A stretch of DNA of 64,000 bases from a virus (taxonomy: Duplodnaviria > Caudoviricetes), in the IMG/VR virus record IMGVR_UViG_3300024999_000096, positions 2,162 through 66,161 of that record. One strand, written 5' to 3'. Positions 41,440 through 60,871 of the stretch are shown piece after piece (the stretch's first letter is position 1; every line of letters starts with the position of its first letter). The position numbers were made by a program, and so were the translations under genes. The notes under the pieces were generated by a model that was not told where the DNA came from, made no database searches, and was given only the letters and a program-made list of their open reading frames with translations.

Positions 41440-41569
41440 GGTGGTTTGGTTTGAAGGTTGGAAGGAGGAGATTAGAATGTAGAAATAAAAGTTTTTAGTT
41501 AGGTATAGGACAAAATGAAATTGTCTATAATATAATCACAAGGAAATAAAAAGGAGTGTGATTATAGTT

Positions 41570-41956
41570 ATGCAAAGAGGAGAGATATACTTAGCTACAG
41601 TTAAAAATAATATTGGAGGATCAGTGCAAACAATTTGTCAAAGACCAATGATAATTATTTCAAACCATATGAGTTTGTTACATTCACCTGTTATTCACGC
41701 AATTCCGCTATCTAGTAAGGTTTTTAAGAAGTGGATACCCACGCACGTTTCTGTGCCAATGGCTAGTAGTGGGCTATTGAAAGATTCTGTTGCACTTTGC
41801 GAACAGGTGATGCTTCTTCCGAAAGAGGTTTTTAGCAAAAAAATAGGAGTATGCAGTAATTTTGTTATAAATAAATTGGAAGAGGGTTTGATGGTACAGT
41901 TTGGATTGTTTAACCATAATCAAAATTCAAAAAATAATGTTGCGTATGCAAATTAA
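41570..41956 (+). CDS. mazF: MazF/PemK endoribonuclease
   Basis: MQRGEIY...GGSVQ...RPMIIISN...AIPLSSK...PTHV...GLLKDSVALCEQV. Confidence 0.85.
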   Translation: MQRGEIYLATVKNNIGGSVQTICQRPMIIISNHMSLLHSPVIHAIPLSSKVFKKWIPTHVSVPMASSGLLKDSVALCEQVMLLPKEVFSKKIGVCSNFVINKLEEGLMVQFGLFNHNQNSKNNVAYAN

Positions 41957-41977: not shown

Positions 41978-42664
41978 ATGGATTTTATAGTCTATTTAAC
42001 TAGAGGAACCTTAAACATATTTAACATCAATGTAAATACAATTAATGAGGTATTTAATAACGAGCATTATTCAAAAATCAACAATTTAATAAAAACACAT
42101 AGAAAAAAAGAAATACAAACTAATGCAGAACATGTTTTTCAGTTAGTAGAAAATGGAATTACTCTTGCTTATAGTGAGATACTTAAATATATAATTGTTT
42201 TATTTATAGCAAAATGTTTGTGTTTAAGTATTTCACTTCCAGTATTCTTTGTCATGACTATTTTCACTATTCTTAGAGCTTCCGCAGGAGGGGTACATTT
42301 ATCTACCTTTAATAAATGTTTTGGGGCAATGATAATATGTTTTCTTTCTTTAGGATGGATAGTAACTCAAATACATATAAACTATTTACATTTAATAATT
42401 GGATATATAATAAGTATATATTTAGCTTATAAATATGCTCCTCAAGAAAGAGAAGATAAATCAGATAAAGATTGTGATAATGGTAATATAAAAAAGTATA
42501 GAAGTATATTGTTTGTTACAGTTTGTTGTTTTTTAAGTATTGTGCTTTTAAATTCACATCAAATAGTTAGTATAAGTGTCTTTTTTGGAATATTGCTCGA
42601 AACATTTACAATTACGCCCATTGGAACTAGATTTTTTAAGTGGATCGATGGAGGACATATATGA
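41978..42664 (+). CDS. agrB: AgrB-family AIP-processing membrane peptidase
   Basis: LRASAGGVHLSTFNKC (catalytic His/Cys motif) and YKYAP; multi-pass membrane protein. Confidence 0.9.
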   Translation: MDFIVYLTRGTLNIFNINVNTINEVFNNEHYSKINNLIKTHRKKEIQTNAEHVFQLVENGITLAYSEILKYIIVLFIAKCLCLSISLPVFFVMTIFTILRASAGGVHLSTFNKCFGAMIICFLSLGWIVTQIHINYLHLIIGYIISIYLAYKYAPQEREDKSDKDCDNGNIKKYRSILFVTVCCFLSIVLLNSHQIVSISVFFGILLETFTITPIGTRFFKWIDGGHI

Positions 42665-43281
42665 TCGAAGTAGTAGTTATTGCTTGTTTGGTTGCAAAAC
42701 TCAAAGGATATAAATGGTCTGAAATATTTAAAGTTTTTAAACATTGGAGTGCTTACTCAATTATATTAACCTGTATACTGAACATATATATTGTGTATTT
42801 GATGATTCACGGAGAATATTGGTTTTTACAATATAGTAGTTGTATAAAAAATGTTACATTTCTATTTTACATATTGTTAATTGTTAAATATAAACTAATT
42901 AATATTTCTGTATTTAAAAATATTAACATAAAAAAGAATGGACAATTAATTACGTCACTTACATCTCCAGTTATTATAGGAGCATTATGTGCAACCGTAG
43001 GATCTAAATTAAATGAATTAGCTATGTTTTATAATAATGGTAAAATGCCTGTATTCCCAAGCAATAGTATCAGTATTGGGTTTTCAAAGATTGATATGTT
43101 TGAAAAAGCGTCAGTATTTAATGATTTTCATATATTGGGGAACTACACGACAAAATTAATATTTTTAACCGATACTTGGGATATTTTTTATGTAATAATG
43201 AGTCCAGGTGATATATTGATAAAGTTATTTGCTGGAATGATTTTATATTATTCAATTAAACAAAGTAAAGTTTTACTATAA
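42661..43281 (+). CDS. DUF5317-family membrane protein
   Basis: LNELAMFYNNGKMPV...LIFLTD...SPGDILI; ATGA overlap with agrB. Confidence 0.75.
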   Translation: MIEVVVIACLVAKLKGYKWSEIFKVFKHWSAYSIILTCILNIYIVYLMIHGEYWFLQYSSCIKNVTFLFYILLIVKYKLINISVFKNINIKKNGQLITSLTSPVIIGALCATVGSKLNELAMFYNNGKMPVFPSNSISIGFSKIDMFEKASVFNDFHILGNYTTKLIFLTDTWDIFYVIMSPGDILIKLFAGMILYYSIKQSKVLL

Positions 43282-43296
43282 ATATAAAAATAATGT

Positions 43297-43325
43297 TTGA
43301 CAATTAGACAAATATGTATTATACT
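43297..43325 (+). promoter_or_regulatory. Sigma-A promoter
   Basis: TTGACA-17-TATACT. Confidence 0.8.
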
Positions 43326-43354
43326 CAATATATAAGGTGAAGGAGGAAATACAT

Positions 43355-44164
43355 ATGAAAGATTTAACTAATATCATTACATGCTTCTTTTTTCTCGCGG
43401 TTCCAGATTTTATCTTTATGGTAATGTTGCTAATAAAATTTATGAATAAAAGAGAATTATTGGATGTTTATAGATTAAAAGAAAATATTAAATGGTATAT
43501 AATTTTGATTATACCACCTTCTCTACTAGTAAGTGTTCTAATTTATGGATTTAAATTTCAAAGAAATATTTCTTCAATAATAAGTTTAATTTTGCTATAC
43601 TTTATTTCAATTTATGTATTTGAAAAGACAAAGATAGAAGAAGTAAAACTTTTAAGAATAAAAATTCTTATAAGATTTATTCCTTTGTATATAAGTCTAA
43701 TAGCAATCGATCTGGCAACTGCACCTGTTTTGTTTTATTTTTTACATTTAGATTTTCAAAAAATTTATAATGATATACATTTACTTTTGATATGTTCTCT
43801 TGCATCAAGAATTATAGAGTTTTCAATTATTACATTTATACTTACATATAAGCAGAGAAAATTTCAGGTTAATTTATTAGAGTATATTTATAAAAATACC
43901 TTTTTTAGAAGATTTGTTATAATTACAATGATCTTATTAATGATATTCGAAATATGCATACTAAAATTGGCTATATATAATAATTTTTTAAATATTTTAA
44001 AATCATTAACAGGACAAATAGTTATTGTTATAGGTTTTATTTATCTGATACCTTCCATTGTTATAATAGGTTTATATTTAATAATAAATCATTGTGTTTC
44101 TCTTCTAAATAGTGTGAAGCAGACTTCTAATCTACCTTCTAATGAAGATGATATGTCTGTTTAG
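43355..44164 (+). CDS. Multi-pass membrane protein, candidate AIP receptor (AgrC-like sensor module without kinase)
   Basis: About 7 TM segments; immediately upstream of agrD; no HisKA/HATPase motifs. Confidence 0.55.
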   Translation: MKDLTNIITCFFFLAVPDFIFMVMLLIKFMNKRELLDVYRLKENIKWYIILIIPPSLLVSVLIYGFKFQRNISSIISLILLYFISIYVFEKTKIEEVKLLRIKILIRFIPLYISLIAIDLATAPVLFYFLHLDFQKIYNDIHLLLICSLASRIIEFSIITFILTYKQRKFQVNLLEYIYKNTFFRRFVIITMILLMIFEICILKLAIYNNFLNILKSLTGQIVIVIGFIYLIPSIVIIGLYLIINHCVSLLNSVKQTSNLPSNEDDMSV

Positions 44165-44195
44165 CAAATAATTATTAAGTAAGGAGGTGAAAAAT

Positions 44196-44315
44196 ATGAA
44201 AAATAAAGTATTAGCAAGTGGTTTGGTAATTATTGCTTCTATTGCTGTATATGCAGCAACCATGCCTTGTCTGGCTGCATGGCATCAACCAAAAACCCCT
44301 AAGTGTATCGCGTAA
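44196..44315 (+). CDS. agrD: AgrD cyclic autoinducing peptide precursor (not in ORF track)
   Basis: RBS AAGGAGGTG; MKNKVLASGLVIIASIAVYAATMPCLAAWHQPKTPKCIA has an amphipathic leader plus C-x4-HQPxxP as in clostridial AgrD. Confidence 0.9.
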   Translation: MKNKVLASGLVIIASIAVYAATMPCLAAWHQPKTPKCIA

Positions 44316-44332
44316 TACATACCCAATCATCT

Positions 44333-44361
44333 AAGGAGGGAGTTTTATACTCTCTCCTTTT
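44333..44361 (+). terminator. Rho-independent terminator after agrD
   Basis: AAGGAGGGAGT-tttat-ACTCTCTCCTT-TT. Confidence 0.75.
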
Positions 44362-44389
44362 GAATTATAAAATAATTTTAAATACCCTA

Positions 44390-44418
44390 TTGACATATTT
44401 GCCACCACAATGTATTAT
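44390..44418 (+). promoter_or_regulatory. Sigma-A promoter
   Basis: TTGACA-17-TATTAT. Confidence 0.75.
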
Positions 44419-44483
44419 AGTAGTATAAAGTAAGAATTCAAAAAATTTATATTTACTTAATAAAGAAAGGTGGATGAATTAAT

Positions 44484-45296
44484 ATGTTTTTTAATGCAAA
44501 GAAGAAGATCGAGGTAGTTAAATCAAATGAGGTAAAGGATTTTAAGAAGCTTTCAAATCTAGTGAAGATCGCAGTAGGGCATAATACTATTAAAGAATTT
44601 GCAGGTCGTTGTGGAATCCCTAATTATTTCGAAAGTATATTAGGAATCATAAACGAAAAAATAACTACATACCCAGAACTTTGGCTCCTTCAAAAAATTT
44701 CTAATGGATCAGAATTGCGAGTATCCTTTGATGAATTAAGAATTGCTTGTGGTTATAGTTTGAATGATGGAGATGTTAATTTAAAAGATATAAAACCATT
44801 TTGGGGAGGAATCTATTGGTGCGACTTCAAAAATTACGTCGATAGTGTCACTGGAGGCATACATCCTGCCGTAATCACGCAGAACAATATAGGAAATGAC
44901 AGGGCCACGATCACTTGGGCTGTGCCTTTGACTAGTAAAATAAGTAAGAATTTTCAACCTACTCATATAAAAATTTCTAAAAATTGTGGATTGGAAAAAG
45001 ATTCTGAAATTATTATAGAGCAAATGAGAGTTATTACGAAACGCGATCTATTAATTGATGGGCATGTTAATTTTATTTGTGAATGCCCAGAAGACATTAT
45101 GCGTCAAGTGTCGATTGGCATTATGAAACAGGCAGGAATGGTGCATGCCAAAGCTAAAGAGTCTACAGTGAGCAGATTTTTAGATAAACTTAATGAATAT
45201 GTTAATAAAGAGGAAGAAAGTCGTCTCAACCGCATCAGAAGCAATAACTTTAATACAGCAATTCCTCAATCCCAAAGAGTTGCATCTTTAGCATGA
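44484..45296 (+). CDS. XRE-HTH-like plus MazF/PemK fusion protein
   Basis: N-terminal TIKEFAGRCGI...LLQKIS...VSFDELRIACGY; C-terminal GIYWCDF...GGIHPAVITQN...VPLTSK...PTHI...EQMRVI. Confidence 0.75.
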   Translation: MFFNAKKKIEVVKSNEVKDFKKLSNLVKIAVGHNTIKEFAGRCGIPNYFESILGIINEKITTYPELWLLQKISNGSELRVSFDELRIACGYSLNDGDVNLKDIKPFWGGIYWCDFKNYVDSVTGGIHPAVITQNNIGNDRATITWAVPLTSKISKNFQPTHIKISKNCGLEKDSEIIIEQMRVITKRDLLIDGHVNFICECPEDIMRQVSIGIMKQAGMVHAKAKESTVSRFLDKLNEYVNKEEESRLNRIRSNNFNTAIPQSQRVASLA

Positions 45297-45396
45297 AAAT
45301 AAAATAGATGGTCATTATATCACTTACTAATTATTGTCACAATTGTTGTAATGACCATCTCTACACAACAAATAAAATTAGAAAGAGGAGTATTTA

Positions 45397-46207
45397 TATG
45401 CAAACACTATCCCTTTCCCATATCCTCCTAAACACAATCTTCACATCGCTCCCAGAAGAAGGATTCGTCGCAATAATAACATTAATCTTCCTAAAACTAA
45501 ATAATCTCCTAGACATCTACATGTGGAATAAAAGCCTAAAATGGATTGCATTAGCTGTACTTCCAGTATCCATAATGATAAATATCCTTCGTTACATAAT
45601 TATAGTACCAAAGCAAAATATGATGATTTCAACTATGATTATCATGATTTTACTCATGGAATTTATAGTCCTAAACAATAGTTTCAATATAACTATTTCC
45701 CTAATACTAAAAACAGCAATATTCACAATCGCAGGATTTGTCATTGTAGGGCTAGTAGAATTATCATATTGTCCTCTTATATTATCAATAGTGGATAAAC
45801 CAATCTCATTTTTCAATGACAATGTTTTCTATAATTTTCTATTAGGTATCCCTGCGAGAGTATTATATTTATGTGTAATTTCGTTTGTTGTAATGAGAAG
45901 AAATAATTCAGTTCATGTTAATTTATTCAATTCCATATTTAAAAACAAATTCTTTATGTGTAGTCTTATAACAATAGTATTGGCTAGGATATCTGCAATT
46001 GTATATATTGCAAAATTAGTAAACAATAATCATATTTTATTCAATCTACAAATTGTGGATCAATTAATAATTATGGTTGTAACAATGTCCATTCCAGTAA
46101 TATTAGTTACTTGGTTATTAATGTTTGTAAATAATCTATTGTGTAAGGAAGAAATTAAATTTCAAAATTATGAGAATATGGTTAATTCAAGTGGAAAGGT
46201 AGTATAA
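45397..46207 (+). CDS. Second multi-pass membrane protein, probable paralog of 43355-44164
   Basis: Shared pattern (SLPEEGF/AVPDFIF; LLDIY/LLDVY; KW; VNLFNSIFKNKFF/VNLLEYIYKNTFF); no kinase domain. Confidence 0.65.
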
Positions 46208-46377: not shown

Positions 46378-46403
46378 ATATGTCAAAAGGAGGAATAAAT
46401 ATT

Positions 46404-47759
46404 ATGAAACAAGATCGTCAAATTCTTGAGGATATTCTTAATTTAGTCATTGAAGATTATGCTAATGACAATCAAATTCAAGAGCAGGTTGTAGGTAAAT
46501 TATTAGAAAGAGGTATCCCAAGGGGTAGAACTACAGGTATATTCACTAAAGCAATTCCTTTAGTCTATGTTGAAGAAATTGAACTATGTTTATTTACAAA
46601 ATACCTTTATGGTTATACTCACCGAACAGAAATAAATCCAGATGAGTTCTTTACAGAGATTGAATTGTCTTCTGCTGATTATTACAAAAAACTTGATAAA
46701 GAAAAGGTTAAATACATTTTACTTCATAATGTTGATCAAATAGATGATAGTCAGTGGTTATGTACAAAAGAAACTTATCAAAATATTAATCTTTATATGG
46801 GTAATGGATTATTGACATATAATCCAAACACTCAAAGACAACTCTTAAAAAGACGAAGTGGAAACAGAATTGTTGAATCTATTAATATTGACAGTAAGAA
46901 AGTATCAGAAATTACAGAGTCAATGATAGATGGTTCTTTTTGTACTAATGCTATTATGTGGAACATTCGTAAAATAAATGGGCAAGAAAAGTTTAAGTAT
47001 GATCTTAAAACTAGAACGTTATTAATTGAACCTGATAACATGTCTACTCTGGTTGACATAATTGATGGTGCGAATCGCACTTGTGGTATGTTAAAAACTG
47101 TTGAAACTAAAAATGATATAGATCGAGTAACATCAATTTATATTCACCACGTTACTGAAGAGCGTGCCAATGAAATAATTCGACAAGAAAGCAAAAGTAC
47201 GCAAATTGAAACTGAATGGGTTGATTTTAAAAATACAGCTAATCCAAATATGGAAGTAGCAAAAGCTATTAATTCTAGGCAAAGGGCAAATGAAATGTTT
47301 AATCGCATAGCCTTAAATGAAAAGGAATTGATTGTCGAAAGCAAATTCATGACATTTGATACTTTGTCAAAATCTATTGAATTTCTTTATGATCTTAAAG
47401 AGGAACCAGTTATCAGAACGTCACAAGTTGAAGATGATATTGTAGAGATATTTAATAATGTTATTGGTATTTATTACTCAAAATTCAAAGCAGAATTATC
47501 TAATACCAAAGAAACTTCATATCTTGCACATAATAACATGTTTATGGGGTATATTATTTTAGGAGATTTATTAAAGCAAAAGTATGGCGATGACTGGAAA
47601 CCTGAATTAGTAAAAGTATTAAACTCTTTAGACTTTGATAAATCAAATAAAATTTGGAAGAAAATTGGAATCGAAAACCATGTAAATTTATCTACATTCA
47701 AAAAGATTTCTGATTATTTTAAAGATGTTGTTTATCAACATGAGAAGGAGGTATCATAA
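46404..47759 (+). CDS. DndB/DGQHR-like protein, SPbeta YopQ(SroE)-like
   Basis: LTYNPNTQR...IIDGANR; about 450 aa; translationally coupled to an integrase-like gene. Confidence 0.65.
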   Translation: MKQDRQILEDILNLVIEDYANDNQIQEQVVGKLLERGIPRGRTTGIFTKAIPLVYVEEIELCLFTKYLYGYTHRTEINPDEFFTEIELSSADYYKKLDKEKVKYILLHNVDQIDDSQWLCTKETYQNINLYMGNGLLTYNPNTQRQLLKRRSGNRIVESINIDSKKVSEITESMIDGSFCTNAIMWNIRKINGQEKFKYDLKTRTLLIEPDNMSTLVDIIDGANRTCGMLKTVETKNDIDRVTSIYIHHVTEERANEIIRQESKSTQIETEWVDFKNTANPNMEVAKAINSRQRANEMFNRIALNEKELIVESKFMTFDTLSKSIEFLYDLKEEPVIRTSQVEDDIVEIFNNVIGIYYSKFKAELSNTKETSYLAHNNMFMGYIILGDLLKQKYGDDWKPELVKVLNSLDFDKSNKIWKKIGIENHVNLSTFKKISDYFKDVVYQHEKEVS

Positions 47760-57876: not shown

Positions 57877-59835
57877 ATGAGTAATGTAGATCGAATTAAA
57901 GAGTTAGTAACACAACTTAATATAGCCTGTAACGCCTATTACAACCTGAATAAACCTATTATGGAGAATAGAGAATACAATCTACTCTTTGATGAATTAG
58001 AGTCCTTAGAACAGAAATCAGGAGTAATTATGAGTGATTCACCTACACGCAGAGCTGGATATCCTGTAGTGTCAGATTTACCAAAAGTTAAACATGAAAT
58101 TCCATTGTTGTCTTTAGGAAAAGTCAAAGAAATCCCTAAACTAGTAAAATGGTTGGGAGATAAACAAGGTGTATTAATGTTAAAGATGGATGGAGGTACT
58201 GGGGCTGTACATTATAAAAAGGAATTTAAACAATTAGTTACTAGGGGTGATTCTGAAACAAATATTGGTGAAGATATTTCTCATAATGTACATAGCATAA
58301 AAAATATTCCACTAAATATTGATGATAATGATGATATCATAATTGTTGGTGAGAATTTCATGAAATATTCTTCATTCAATGAAATTAACTCAAAAATATT
58401 AAATCAAGATGATAAATATGCAAATCCAAGGAATTTAGCAAATGGTTCTACTGGTTTGTTAAACAGCAAAATATGTAAAGAACGTAATATAGAATTTTGT
58501 GCATTTAATATTATCAAAGGAAATAAATTCAAAACAAAACAAGAACAATTAGAATGGTTAAAATCACAAGGTTTCTATGTCGTTCAATATTGGATGGTTA
58601 CAAAAAGCAATCTTGAAGAAACAATGAATCAAATTATAGAAAATATTCCCAACCTTGATTTCCCAATTGACGGCCTAGTTTTATCGTTTAATGATATAGA
58701 ATATGGATTATCTTTAGGCCAAGTTGCTCACCATCCAAAGCATTCTGTTTCATTTAAATTCGAGGATTCATGGTTTAAGACGAAATATTTATACACAGAA
58801 TGGAATACAAGTAGGTTCGGTAAAATCATAGGCACAGGAATATTTCAACCTGTCAACATTGAAGGTTCAGAAGTTGAGAGAGCAACAACACATAACTTAA
58901 ATAGATTTTGGGATTTAAAACTTGGAAAGGATGATATCATTGAAATAACGAAGAGAAACAAAATTATCCCTGCTATTGAGAATAATATTACCAGAAGTAA
59001 TACAGAACAATTGCCTACAAAATGTCCTACGTGTGGTGGTGATGTAGAAGTTAGATTAGTTGTAAAAACTCATGATTTATTTTGTCTTAATCATGATTGT
59101 GAAGCTAAATTAACACAAAAACTCAAGCATTTTGTGAGTAAACAATGTTTTAATATTGATGATCTTGGCGAAGCAACTTTGGAAATGTTCATTGATAAAG
59201 GGTTTGTTGAAAATTATATGGATATCTTCAAATTAGAAAAACATAAGAAAGAATTAGTGAAGCTTAGTGGATTTGGGGTTAAATCTTTCAACAACTTAAT
59301 GACTGCTTTAGAAAAATCAAAGCAGATAAGTATGACTTCACTGATTGCTTCCCTTGGTATAAAGAATGTAGGATTTGGATCATCAAAGAGACTTGCTAAA
59401 CATTTTAATAATGACATTGATTTATTCTTAAAAGCAACAAAATCCTATATGAACTTTGTAAATATTAATGATTTTGGAGATATTACTGCAACTTCAATTT
59501 ATGAATATTTCCAAAATGAAGAGAATATGAATATGTTTTTGGAATTATTGGAATATGTGAATATTATTAAAGAAGAAAAGAAGGAAATGTTGAATGTGGA
59601 AGAAAATCCGTTTCTAGGAATGCATGTGTACCCATCTGGAGTCTTTTCAATGAAGAAGGCAGAATTGAAAATCAAACTTGAAGAAATTGGAGCAATTGTA
59701 GAAAGTGGCTATAAAAAGAGTTTAGATATGTTAATTTGCGGCGGTGATATGAGTAAGTCGGGTAAAGCTTTAAAAGCTGAGAAAGACGGAGTAAAAATGG
59801 TTTCTGAGGAATTTCTCATGCAATATTTAAAGTAA
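57877..59835 (+). CDS. ligA: NAD-dependent DNA ligase
   Basis: KMDG, TRGD..GEDI, NPRN, DGLV, Zn finger CPTC...C...C, HhH and BRCT. Confidence 0.95.
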   Translation: MSNVDRIKELVTQLNIACNAYYNLNKPIMENREYNLLFDELESLEQKSGVIMSDSPTRRAGYPVVSDLPKVKHEIPLLSLGKVKEIPKLVKWLGDKQGVLMLKMDGGTGAVHYKKEFKQLVTRGDSETNIGEDISHNVHSIKNIPLNIDDNDDIIIVGENFMKYSSFNEINSKILNQDDKYANPRNLANGSTGLLNSKICKERNIEFCAFNIIKGNKFKTKQEQLEWLKSQGFYVVQYWMVTKSNLEETMNQIIENIPNLDFPIDGLVLSFNDIEYGLSLGQVAHHPKHSVSFKFEDSWFKTKYLYTEWNTSRFGKIIGTGIFQPVNIEGSEVERATTHNLNRFWDLKLGKDDIIEITKRNKIIPAIENNITRSNTEQLPTKCPTCGGDVEVRLVVKTHDLFCLNHDCEAKLTQKLKHFVSKQCFNIDDLGEATLEMFIDKGFVENYMDIFKLEKHKKELVKLSGFGVKSFNNLMTALEKSKQISMTSLIASLGIKNVGFGSSKRLAKHFNNDIDLFLKATKSYMNFVNINDFGDITATSIYEYFQNEENMNMFLELLEYVNIIKEEKKEMLNVEENPFLGMHVYPSGVFSMKKAELKIKLEEIGAIVESGYKKSLDMLICGGDMSKSGKALKAEKDGVKMVSEEFLMQYLK

Positions 59836-59851
59836 AAATAATGATAGATAT

Positions 59852-59879
59852 GGAGATAGGGTAAAACCTATTTCCTGTT
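59852..59879 (+). terminator. Possible terminator hairpin after ligA
   Basis: GGAGATAGG-gtaaaa-CCTATTTCC. Confidence 0.5.
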
Positions 59880-60097
59880 CCCATAAGCTATCGATTTTAA
59901 TTGAAAGGAATGAATTAAAATTAGTTTCTGGATAGACGAAGGGCTTATCGGTTCTATATGTAGAAAGTGTGATAATTGGATATTTTATGATTGGTATTTG
60001 TGTGAATTTGCTCCTAGTGATAAGAATGAAGATGGAGCATTATCTCTTCCAATAATAGAGTGTAATAATTTTAAACAGAGAAAGGTAGGATTTACAA

Positions 60098-60871
60098 ATG
60101 AAGGGTGCAATTTTAGGAGATATTATTGGTTCAAAATTTGAATTCAGTAAACTTCGTTATAATAAATCAGAAGATTTTCAATTACTTTCAAAAGGATGTA
60201 CTTTTACAGATGATACAGTTATGACAATTGCAACAGCAGATGCTATTCTTAATAATATTGATTTTGCTAAAAGTTATCATATGTGGGGAAGTTTATATCC
60301 AGATAGAGGATACGGATGCAATTTTGCTAGTTGGTTATCTAATAAAAGTTATGAACCATATAATAGTTATGGAAATGGTTCTGCTATGAGGGTTAGTCCT
60401 GTAGGTTGGTTGTATAATGATTTAGAGACTGTTTTTGCAAAAGCGGAAGAATCTGCAAGTGTTAGTCATAATCATCCAGAAGGAATTAAAGGAGCAATGG
60501 CAGTTGCAGGTTGTATATATCTTGCTAGATATCAAACGCCAAAAAAGATTATTAAAGAAATGATTGAAACATATTTTGAGTATAATTTAAATAAAACAAT
60601 TGCAGAAATTCGTCCCACTTATGATTTCGATGAAACATGTCAAGGAAGTGTACCAGAATCTATTATTTGTTTTCTTGAAGGAAATAGTTATGAAGATGTA
60701 GTAAGAAAGGCAGTAAGTCTTGGAGGAGATACAGATACTCAAGGATGTATAGCAGGGAGTATTGCAGAAGCATTTTATGGTATGCCTGATAAATTGGTTA
60801 TTAAACTTGATGATTATTTACCAGAAAATATGTTGGACATAGTTGATCAATTTAATAAAACGGTCAAATAA
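60098..60871 (+). CDS. ADP-ribosylglycohydrolase (DraG/ARH family)
   Basis: GAILGDIIGS, FTDDT, SYGNGSAMRVSP, SHNHPEG and GGDTDT motifs. Confidence 0.95.
   Translation: MKGAILGDIIGSKFEFSKLRYNKSEDFQLLSKGCTFTDDTVMTIATADAILNNIDFAKSYHMWGSLYPDRGYGCNFASWLSNKSYEPYNSYGNGSAMRVSPVGWLYNDLETVFAKAEESASVSHNHPEGIKGAMAVAGCIYLARYQTPKKIIKEMIETYFEYNLNKTIAEIRPTYDFDETCQGSVPESIICFLEGNSYEDVVRKAVSLGGDTDTQGCIAGSIAEAFYGMPDKLVIKLDDYLPENMLDIVDQFNKTVK

Follow-up and report, generated by a model that had tools for sequence, protein, structure and literature searches.

The DNA analysed here (the window) is a 64-kb stretch of a 66-kb IMG/VR virus record (IMGVR_UViG_3300024999_000096, a large uncultured phage of the Caudoviricetes; completeness 44% by CheckV). 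It carries a cassette in which parts of an accessory gene regulator (agr) system lie beside MazF-type toxin genes and the genes of two membrane proteins, which we call TM-A and TM-B. Agr is the textbook form of peptide quorum sensing in Gram-positive bacteria and is defined by the AgrC kinase and the AgrA regulator. Read from its open reading frames (ORFs), Pfam and NCBIfam, the cassette runs in the order MazF1, AgrB, DUF5317, TM-A, AgrD, N-domain-MazF fusion and TM-B (table 1). Judged by gene content and conservation, it is a real, conserved, kinase-free variant of agr with a MazF-fusion gene in the output position and an orphan receptor-like paralogue, and the phage probably senses its peptide without phosphorylation.

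Table 1. Genes and regulatory features of the cassette (window coordinates; aa, amino acids; nt, nucleotides).
Feature	Position	Strand	Evidence
MazF1, stand-alone MazF/PemK-type endoribonuclease toxin homologue, first cassette gene	41558..41956	+	PF02452 E 2.8e-14
AgrB, peptidase predicted to cut and cyclise AgrD	41978..42664	+	PF04647 E 2.3e-22
DUF5317 membrane protein	42661..43281	+	PF17248 E 8.2e-12, 45.8 bits vs cut-off 25
Promoter-like site ahead of TM-A	43297..43325	+	TTGACA, 17 nt, TATACT
TM-A, seven-helix membrane protein of 269 aa; candidate sensor for the phage's cognate peptide	43355..44164	+	model, hhalign, co-variation with AgrD
AgrD precursor, 39 aa	44196..44315	+	TIGR04223 E 3.3e-6, 27.1 bits vs cut-off 19
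Conserved hairpin 3' of agrD, likely terminator or processing site	44333..44359	+	11-bp stem, -17.4 kcal/mol
Promoter-like site ahead of MazF-fusion gene	44390..44418	+	TTGACA, 17 nt, TATTAT
N-domain-MazF fusion, 270 aa: 105-aa N-terminal domain, MazF domain, 55-aa C-terminal extension	44484..45296	+	PF02452/PemK residues 108-214, E 2.1e-16
TM-B, 269-aa TM-A paralogue; putative orphan sensor or constant partner	45398..46207	+	conserved across peptide types

The family of predicted seven-helix membrane proteins to which TM-A and TM-B belong is uncharacterised and mostly viral. TM-A and TM-B are both 269 aa long, because ribosome-binding sites fix their starts: TM-A begins at the ATG at 43355 after GAAGGAGG (the longest ORF opens earlier, at 43337), and TM-B at the ATG at 45398 after AGAGGAG (the longest ORF opens earlier, at 45308), the methionine at which TM-B homologues also begin. 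The two share 21% identity over 253 residues with 4 gap positions (BLASTP, composition-adjusted, E 1e-10), and two proteins (P0037 and P0039) are matched by both queries. Neither has a Pfam match or a match by sequence in the PDB. To describe the family we used an alignment of 41 sequences (A1): the two window proteins, 32 of the 40 matches from a scan of 1.84 billion representative proteins (seven fragments and a hit identical to the window's TM-A were excluded) and 7 of the 42 matches from a word-indexed search. Pfam and NCBIfam, run over these 41 members, returned no kinase family and no family that matched more than one member. P17, E18, D37 and P233 are near-invariant, with P17, E18 and D37 each conserved in 98% of members (TM-A itself has P-D at the first two) and L35 and L36 in 83%; there is no conserved histidine or metal motif. 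The earlier note on this DNA, which had described two paralogous proteins of about 270 aa with several membrane helices and shared motifs, was right in these respects, with its K-N motif before helix 6 the weaker one (K182, 71%).

An AlphaFold2 model of TM-A (pLDDT 91, pTM 0.84) has seven long helices, and the proteins end about 20 residues past helix 7. Counts of lysine and arginine in the loops point to an N-out, C-in topology, in which loops 1, 3 and 5 and the C-terminal tail would be intracellular. The family's most conserved part is helix 1 together with the lysine/arginine-rich first loop, which suits a constant cytoplasmic partner. In an Atlas search the top cluster was viral (637 members, 76% from viruses), with a 'putative sensory transduction protein kinase' at rank 2 (score 0.92), which serves as a lead only. 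No relative of TM-B was found in 185,579 species genomes at the sensitivity of a single-protein search.

The family consistently lacks a kinase. All 40 relatives in the 1.84-billion scan are 76-313 aa long, as are all 42 matches of the word-indexed search (154-279 aa in a search that spanned 147-471 aa), none of which has a Pfam domain. A profile search of proteins of 549-2000 aa found no family member, a negative to which the search tool itself attaches little weight. Full-length relatives are constant in length (253-313 aa), and TM-A and TM-B stop, as the earlier note had it, where the kinase (dimerisation) domain of an AgrC would start. The phages have no kinase of their own: HATPase_c and HATPase_c_5 are absent from the five phage records searched, two of them estimated to be 100% complete, and LytTR (PF04397) is absent from the three searched for it (G000, G001, which is estimated complete, and G002). 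Within peptide types, ratios of non-synonymous to synonymous substitution rates (dN/dS) are 0.22-0.26 for TM-A and 0.12-0.30 for TM-B; this shows purifying selection, and the two genes are therefore intact and not decayed kinases. Two family copies are retained in each of four records, two of which are complete phage genomes.

What these kinase-less proteins resemble is the sensor part of AgrC-type kinases. For comparison we took 121 genomes from the class to which the Bacillota metagenome-assembled genome (MAG) with one family member (locus L012) belongs, and assembled from them 30 loci that encode HATPase_c_5 kinases. AgrB lies within 1.5 kb in 9 of these 30 loci, so the set includes genuine agr kinases. 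The first 215 residues of 27 kinases (ORFs of 420-490 aa; L025, L041 and L044 were dropped as short or truncated) formed the sensor alignment A3. A comparison of A1 with A3 by hhalign gave a probability of 76% (E 2.3e-5) over 138 columns across helices 1-5. Against full-length kinases the probability was 91.7% (E 7.7e-7), in the same register and in the sensor part only, and among the aligned positions are acidic residues (helices 1 and 4) and a basic residue (helix 5). In the controls, reversed profiles scored 16-18.5 and 20 window-shuffles of A1 reached at most 18.5 (vs 41.5 for the real profile), all below 1% probability, and AgrB, used as a membrane-protein control, gave 0.4%. The similarity to peptide-sensing domains that the earlier note hoped to find is therefore present as a remote one, to AgrC-type sensors (76-92%, controls below 1%), and is confined to helices 1-5. 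Common descent with an AgrC-type sensor module thus has moderate support at the profile level.

Searches against known structures returned little. The A1 profile gave only compositional matches to G-protein-coupled receptors and GABA receptors in the PDB (E 0.0056 and above). With the TM-A model, the best Foldseek match in the PDB had E 4.3, the best VIA wide match had Z 7.7 among partial helical matches, and the best match in BFVD had E 1.7. These nulls are silent on the sensor hypothesis, because no solved AgrC sensor was found for comparison.

The gene order of the window recurs in three other loci (L002, L003 and L004), of which L002 and L004 have extra ORFs after MazF1. In more distant phages the order is DUF5317, a seven-helix (TM7) gene, AgrD, MazF fusion and then AgrB; L007 adds a TM-B-type copy, and L010 and L011 have a single TM7 gene. 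A 2.8-kb MAG contig (L012) holds a family member followed by an AgrD-like ORF. On a bacterial contig (L080), one strand carries an XRE helix-turn-helix (HTH) protein (HTH_3, E 6e-17) in the regulator's place, a TM7 member (216 columns aligned by hhalign, probability 78%) and an AgrD-like ORF; AgrB-DUF5317 is convergent with them. Altogether, a family member stands directly upstream of an AgrD-like ORF in all nine distinct loci (window, L002, L003, L004, L007, L010, L011, L012 and L080), a regulator-like gene is adjacent in eight of them (L012 is too short to tell), and the MazF fusion directly follows agrD in all seven phage loci. The two membrane proteins had been described as flanking agrD, which holds for TM-A, directly upstream; between agrD and TM-B stands the MazF-fusion gene.

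Two side observations concern the wider make-up of these loci. In four relatives, L002 (905-2506), L004 (909-1568 and 1778-2488), L007 (3535-5271) and L010 (3720-5273), MazF1 is separated from the other cassette genes by ORFs of 219-578 aa, which look like mobile insertions; the window and L003 have none. The cassette of L080 (G182:C37, 6109-10063) has two further XRE genes and a large helicase around it and may be a mobile element.

The peptide branch of the cassette appears intact. His107 and Cys114, the presumed counterparts of the catalytic pair of S. aureus AgrB, are invariant in the seven phage AgrBs, and by family membership AgrB is predicted to make a cyclic peptide from AgrD. The start of agrD follows a GGAGGTG ribosome-binding site. 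From the general layout of AgrD proteins, the ring would comprise five residues, C-L-A-A-W, followed by an H-Q-P-K-T-P tail. The predicted rings of the four close phages are CLAAW (window), CFAVW, SAIIW and SAFLW, and all seven phage AgrDs, read by eye, have a cysteine or serine five residues before a conserved [HNY]-Q-[PS] tail; the AgrD-like ORFs of L012 and L080 have differing tails. The AgrD calls in L011 and L012 were made by motif only, and those in L007, L010 and L080 by phmmer (E 2.5e-5 to 2.5e-4, against small databases).

DUF5317, which the earlier note had coupled to agrB as a possible maturation or receptor accessory, keeps that place. The two genes are translationally coupled: the start of DUF5317 lies across the stop of agrB, with 4 nt shared, in the window, L002, L003 and L004. 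The family occurs in 37 of 200 genomes of the class, with AgrB nearby in only 2 of 30 fetched loci (searched with a hidden Markov model built from phage AgrBs, of limited sensitivity). Those two loci, L080 and L081, hold the copies most similar to phage DUF5317. Because both AgrB-linked loci carry it, the phage-like subtype is, by gene linkage, a predicted agr accessory; the DUF5317 family as a whole is not. The bacterial locus L081 (G007:C10, 6423-9968, - strand) has a composition of its own: AgrD, a 564-aa GGDEF+HD-GYP enzyme, DUF5317, a 156-aa membrane protein with an A-P-E-S motif in helix 1, and AgrB. Such a cassette would wire an agr peptide to cyclic di-GMP.

TM-A diverges together with the peptide. 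Between the window and L003, AgrB, DUF5317, TM-A and AgrD are 87, 95, 67 and 90% identical, respectively; in the other pairs the ranges are 46-61, 54-57, 34-58 and 29-41%. The highest dN/dS values between peptide types are those of TM-A (0.50-0.60) and AgrD (0.50-0.73), compared with 0.10-0.30 for the other genes. TM-B is 71-92% identical in every pair of the same four phages, whose AgrDs are 29-90% identical, and it follows the downstream block. Of the two receptors that had been proposed, therefore, TM-A tracks the peptide and TM-B does not. A sliding-window comparison revealed recombination breakpoints, one of them within the fusion gene. In a tree of 53 family members (FastTree, rooted on L080), the agrD-adjacent genes are scattered and the TM-B copies form one shallow clade beside the single agrD-adjacent gene of L010. 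From this position, TM-B seems to be a derived copy of receptor type whose peptide gene was lost.

Both MazF proteins have recognisable MazF domains. MazF1 matches MazF/EndoA structures in the PDB with E-values to 4.6e-13, keeps an arginine at the position of the GG-V-R-P arginine of solved MazF, and has a serine at the threonine/serine position. It lies upstream of the cassette in L002, L003, L004, L007 and L010, and its identity does not track the agr block. The MazF domain of the fusion matches PDB MazF structures to E 8e-14; its 35 homologues are 257-272 aa long and all carry PF02452, and the N-terminal 105 residues are well conserved. No MazE-type antitoxin gene was detected among nine cassette proteins scanned with Pfam and NCBIfam, the small flanking ORFs having been read only, not searched. 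As a side observation, the C-terminal extension of the fusion (window 45123-45296) ends in small hydrophobic residues in most of 31 proteins (-V-A-F-A, -A-S-L-A, -V-A-S-F-A, -V-A-Y-A), while four end in -L-Q-T-G-K. The C-terminal 57 aa gave nothing relevant in the PDB. For this tail, a function as protease tag or antitoxin-like segment is conceivable, and a role as a degron is speculation.

The DNA between these genes also carries signals. The two promoter-like sites each match the consensus at 11 of 12 positions; both hexamers of the TM-A site and the -35 hexamer of the fusion-gene site are invariant in the four aligned phages. Promoter-like sites in the region number 44 in total (vs 40.6 in shuffles), which is not above shuffles. 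A palindrome, AATTATAAAATAATT, lies just upstream of the -35 hexamer of the fusion gene. The spacer between agrD and the fusion gene (44316-44483) contains a hairpin, the promoter-like site, the palindrome and a conserved leader, and its mean identity is 85% in the four phages, where the flanking AgrD is only 29-90% identical at the protein level. Conservation beside so variable a gene suggests regulatory sequence. The agrD hairpin was not called by a terminator scan because its T-run is short. A shared operator between the two promoters was not found; they have only an extended -10 in common.

We propose, at a probability of roughly 45%, that TM-A is a kinase-less sensor of the phage's cyclic peptide, signalling by protein contact to the MazF fusion, and that TM-B is a derived orphan sensor or a constant partner. 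In this scheme AgrB, assisted by DUF5317 (as their gene coupling suggests), would produce the cyclic peptide from AgrD, with the predicted ring CLAAW, and TM-A would sense the phage's own peptide. TM-A would contact the fusion through its conserved cytoplasmic face, putatively the L-L-D loop after helix 1. A signal by direct contact is proposed because TM-A has no kinase and the phage encodes none. The fusion, whose N-terminal domain may bind DNA, would be held at the membrane or released, so that transcription and/or RNA cleavage would be switched as phage or lysogen density rises. TM-B, as a copy that lost agrD, may either sense a foreign peptide as an orphan (from a host or a different phage) or serve TM-A as an invariant partner. 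As a mechanistic model we adopt, for its logic only, the LytTR regulatory systems HdrRM and BrsRM of Streptococcus mutans, described as a regulator and a membrane inhibitor protein that work without phosphorylation (PMC6193735). A soluble regulator with a controlling membrane protein would be common to both. The systems differ in that the regulator here is an N-domain-MazF fusion (no LytTR domain was found in the cassette with Pfam), the membrane protein is a seven-helix, sensor-like one, and the unit includes a dedicated AgrB/AgrD peptide. A more specific version, in which an AgrC-derived seven-helix sensor directly gates the MazF regulator fusion in a private phage channel with specificity groups, and TM-B eavesdrops on another phage's or the host's peptide, seems to us quite unlikely as a whole.

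Several observations weigh against this proposal. The sensor similarity is moderate and leaves helices 6-7 unmatched, and the hhalign probability falls to 5.9% when only the 8 AgrB-adjacent kinases are used and to 19% with the other 19. On the output side, the earlier note had called the fusion an HTH-MazF protein. Its MazF part stands, but the HTH is not confirmed: the N-terminal domain has no Pfam match and nothing relevant in a PDB profile search, its hhalign comparison with three XRE (HTH_3) domains gave a probability of 3-4% (E 0.01; expected register, without significance), and its Atlas query was uninformative (score 0.75). Moreover, at the catalytic arginine position, which like the threonine/serine position is assigned after B. 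subtilis MazF, the window's fusion has a histidine. Arginine is found in 25 of 31 fusion proteins and histidine in 6 (the window and five relatives), with the threonine/serine kept, and because of this replacement an RNase output is uncertain in the window phage. As for co-variation, synonymous divergence is near saturation between peptide types, and part of the signal is linkage, because TM-A shares a recombination block with agrB-agrD. A maturation or export factor would co-vary with AgrD likewise, and TM-B does not track the peptide at all.

The main rival, which we regard as unlikely but deserving of real weight, takes up that last argument. TM-A, and perhaps TM-B, would be an accessory of biosynthesis, export or self-immunity, for example in leader removal or export with AgrB; a host kinase would sense the peptide, and the phage would manipulate or eavesdrop. 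Co-variation with both AgrD and AgrB is equally expected of such a partner, and TM-A and agrD share a promoter-like site in a hairpin-bounded unit. There are bacterial precedents as well: orphan agrBD loci that signal via unlinked two-component systems are published for C. difficile (PMC10602386), and Agr activity in S. aureus is reported to need a second membrane protein, MroQ (bioRxiv 10.1101/516914). Yet the family resembles the sensor part of kinases rather than a protease or transporter; a weak CAAX-protease match occurs in only 1 of the 41 members, with no recurring family, and the conserved histidine or metal motif is missing. Furthermore, DUF5317 already occupies the AgrB-coupled accessory slot, TM-B is strongly conserved though it has no agrD of its own, and a regulator-like gene is always adjacent.

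It is improbable, in our view, that TM-A and TM-B are decoys that bind host or foreign peptide, or heterodimerise with a host AgrC-type kinase, and so jam host quorum sensing, with the MazF genes as an unrelated addiction or host-takeover module. Similarity to kinase sensors without an output domain would fit a decoy, as would the conservation of TM-B whatever the phage's own peptide (expected of a host target) and the failure of MazF1 identity to track the agr block. TM-A, however, diversifies along with the AgrD of its own phage, something not required of a decoy aimed at the host, and distant lineages retain the adjacency of TM7, AgrD and regulator, as does a bacterium that has an XRE protein instead of the MazF fusion.

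Also distinctly improbable is a toxin-antitoxin or abortive-infection module in which the membrane proteins are antitoxin-like inhibitors of two antitoxin-less MazFs, with the peptide as a trigger or merely linked. This idea draws on the ORF reading, in which neither MazF gene adjoins a recognisable MazE-type gene, on the fusion gene and TM-B, which appear to be one unit (a promoter-like site before them, 101 nt between the genes), and on the catalytic arginine, kept in most fusion proteins. A link between a peptide signal and MazF has also been claimed for extracellular death factor (EDF) peptides (PMC5930309). On the other hand, L080 has a TM7-AgrD unit with an XRE protein and without MazF, so the TM family does not depend on MazF, and in L010 and L011 a single TM7 gene accompanies MazF1 and/or the fusion; the idea also overlaps with contact signalling from TM-A to the fusion rather than excluding it. 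Finally, that the TM genes are decayed remnants of full-length AgrC kinases is already refuted: the proteins do end where a dimerisation domain would start, but dN/dS of 0.12-0.30, a constant length of 253-313 aa in all full-length relatives, the absence of kinase-fused relatives from the searches and two copies kept in two complete phage genomes rule it out.

Among known systems, the cassette can be set beside staphylococcal/clostridial agrBDCA with its AgrC (HPK10-type, HATPase_c_5). Both have a polytopic N-terminal membrane module beside agrB and agrD, with the remote similarity in helices 1-5, and TM-A diverges together with the peptide, as the staphylococcal AgrC sensor half does across specificity groups. 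Unlike AgrC, the TM proteins have no dimerisation/histidine and ATPase domains and fit seven helices into 269 aa, the three phage records have no LytTR regulator, and the order is TM7 then agrD, compared with agrD then agrC. In arbitrium (AimP/AimR), a phage-encoded linear peptide is secreted, imported and bound by a cytoplasmic receptor. The shared feature is phage-specific peptide variants, which suggest density sensing among related phages; the peptide here would be cyclised by AgrB and the candidate receptor lies in the membrane.

Phage-borne agr genes have been described before. The agr3 locus of phiCDHM1 carries agrB, agrD and a kinase-type agrC (PMC3901668), and in the same paper Hargreaves et al. 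(2014) describe three phages (now Brevibacillus phages Davies, Emery and Abouo) with AgrB, a putative AgrD and membrane proteins lacking an HATPase domain. In Davies (L013, 26243-28658, beside an integrase) we find the membrane proteins gp44 and gp45, AgrB (gp46), gp47 of 39 aa and gp48 of 121 aa, the last with a weak LytTR match (E 0.0074) and no receiver domain. We considered gp44 and gp45 as family members and rejected them, as they have no detectable similarity to A1 (probability 0.2%). phiCDHM1 and Davies thus share phage-borne agrB and agrD with the window, but neither has MazF, DUF5317 or a second orphan copy. With MazEF, the cassette has in common the MazF-fold endoribonuclease domain, and for MazF a modulation by quorum peptides has been claimed (PMC5930309); the cassette differs in that no MazE was seen and one MazF is fused to an N-terminal domain and a C-terminal extension, with a histidine for the catalytic arginine in the window phage. 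The 'new AIP receptor type' (for autoinducing peptides) of the earlier note thus holds as a kinase-less, sensor-like family but was overstated as a first sighting, since kinase-less membrane proteins beside phage agrB and agrD were noted in 2014 (PMC3901668). In the literature searched, which left subscription journals and supplements outside its scope, we found no description of this unit and no work on DUF5317.

GC content in the window is 27-31%, every large ORF (150 aa or more) is on the + strand, and PHROGs matches include an anti-repressor, integrase-like recombinases, a homing endonuclease, a DNA methyltransferase and an NAD-dependent ligase. The ligase (phrog_3869, E 7e-158) lies at 57877-60871 with an ADP-ribosylglycohydrolase (phrog_6572, E 3e-59). 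Every 2-kb bin of the window has a positive GC skew, which falls to 0.04-0.16 across the cassette (42-48 kb), where AT skew is lowest too, a dip consistent with a mosaic insert. A DndB-like protein (phrog_5732 E 7e-60; PF14072 E 9e-7, which is below cut-off) and an MrpR-like recombinase (PF22822 E 4e-18) come directly downstream (46380-48763). L002 and L007 also have this pair 3' of the cassette, and in L003 and L004 its place is taken by a different pair of similar size. Near-identical DNA occurs in sequencing runs labelled groundwater metagenome, mostly from one study, with no RNA run among those listed. Viral contigs of 54-230 kb carry related cassettes; two of these contigs (178 and 230 kb) are rated 100% complete. 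The 4.8-kb cassette DNA had no match in GenBank phages or PLSDB plasmids, and tblastn with AgrB against phages found none.

If the proposed signalling from TM-A to the MazF fusion is true, an AgrC sensor module can work through an output other than a phosphorelay. It would also add a membrane-receptor channel to communication between phages, for which arbitrium has so far been the main example, and tie a quorum peptide genetically to a MazF toxin in nature, a connection that has long been disputed. The peptide/TM-A specificity groups, together with the orphan TM-B, would make a tractable system of a short synthetic peptide, two promoters and three proteins.

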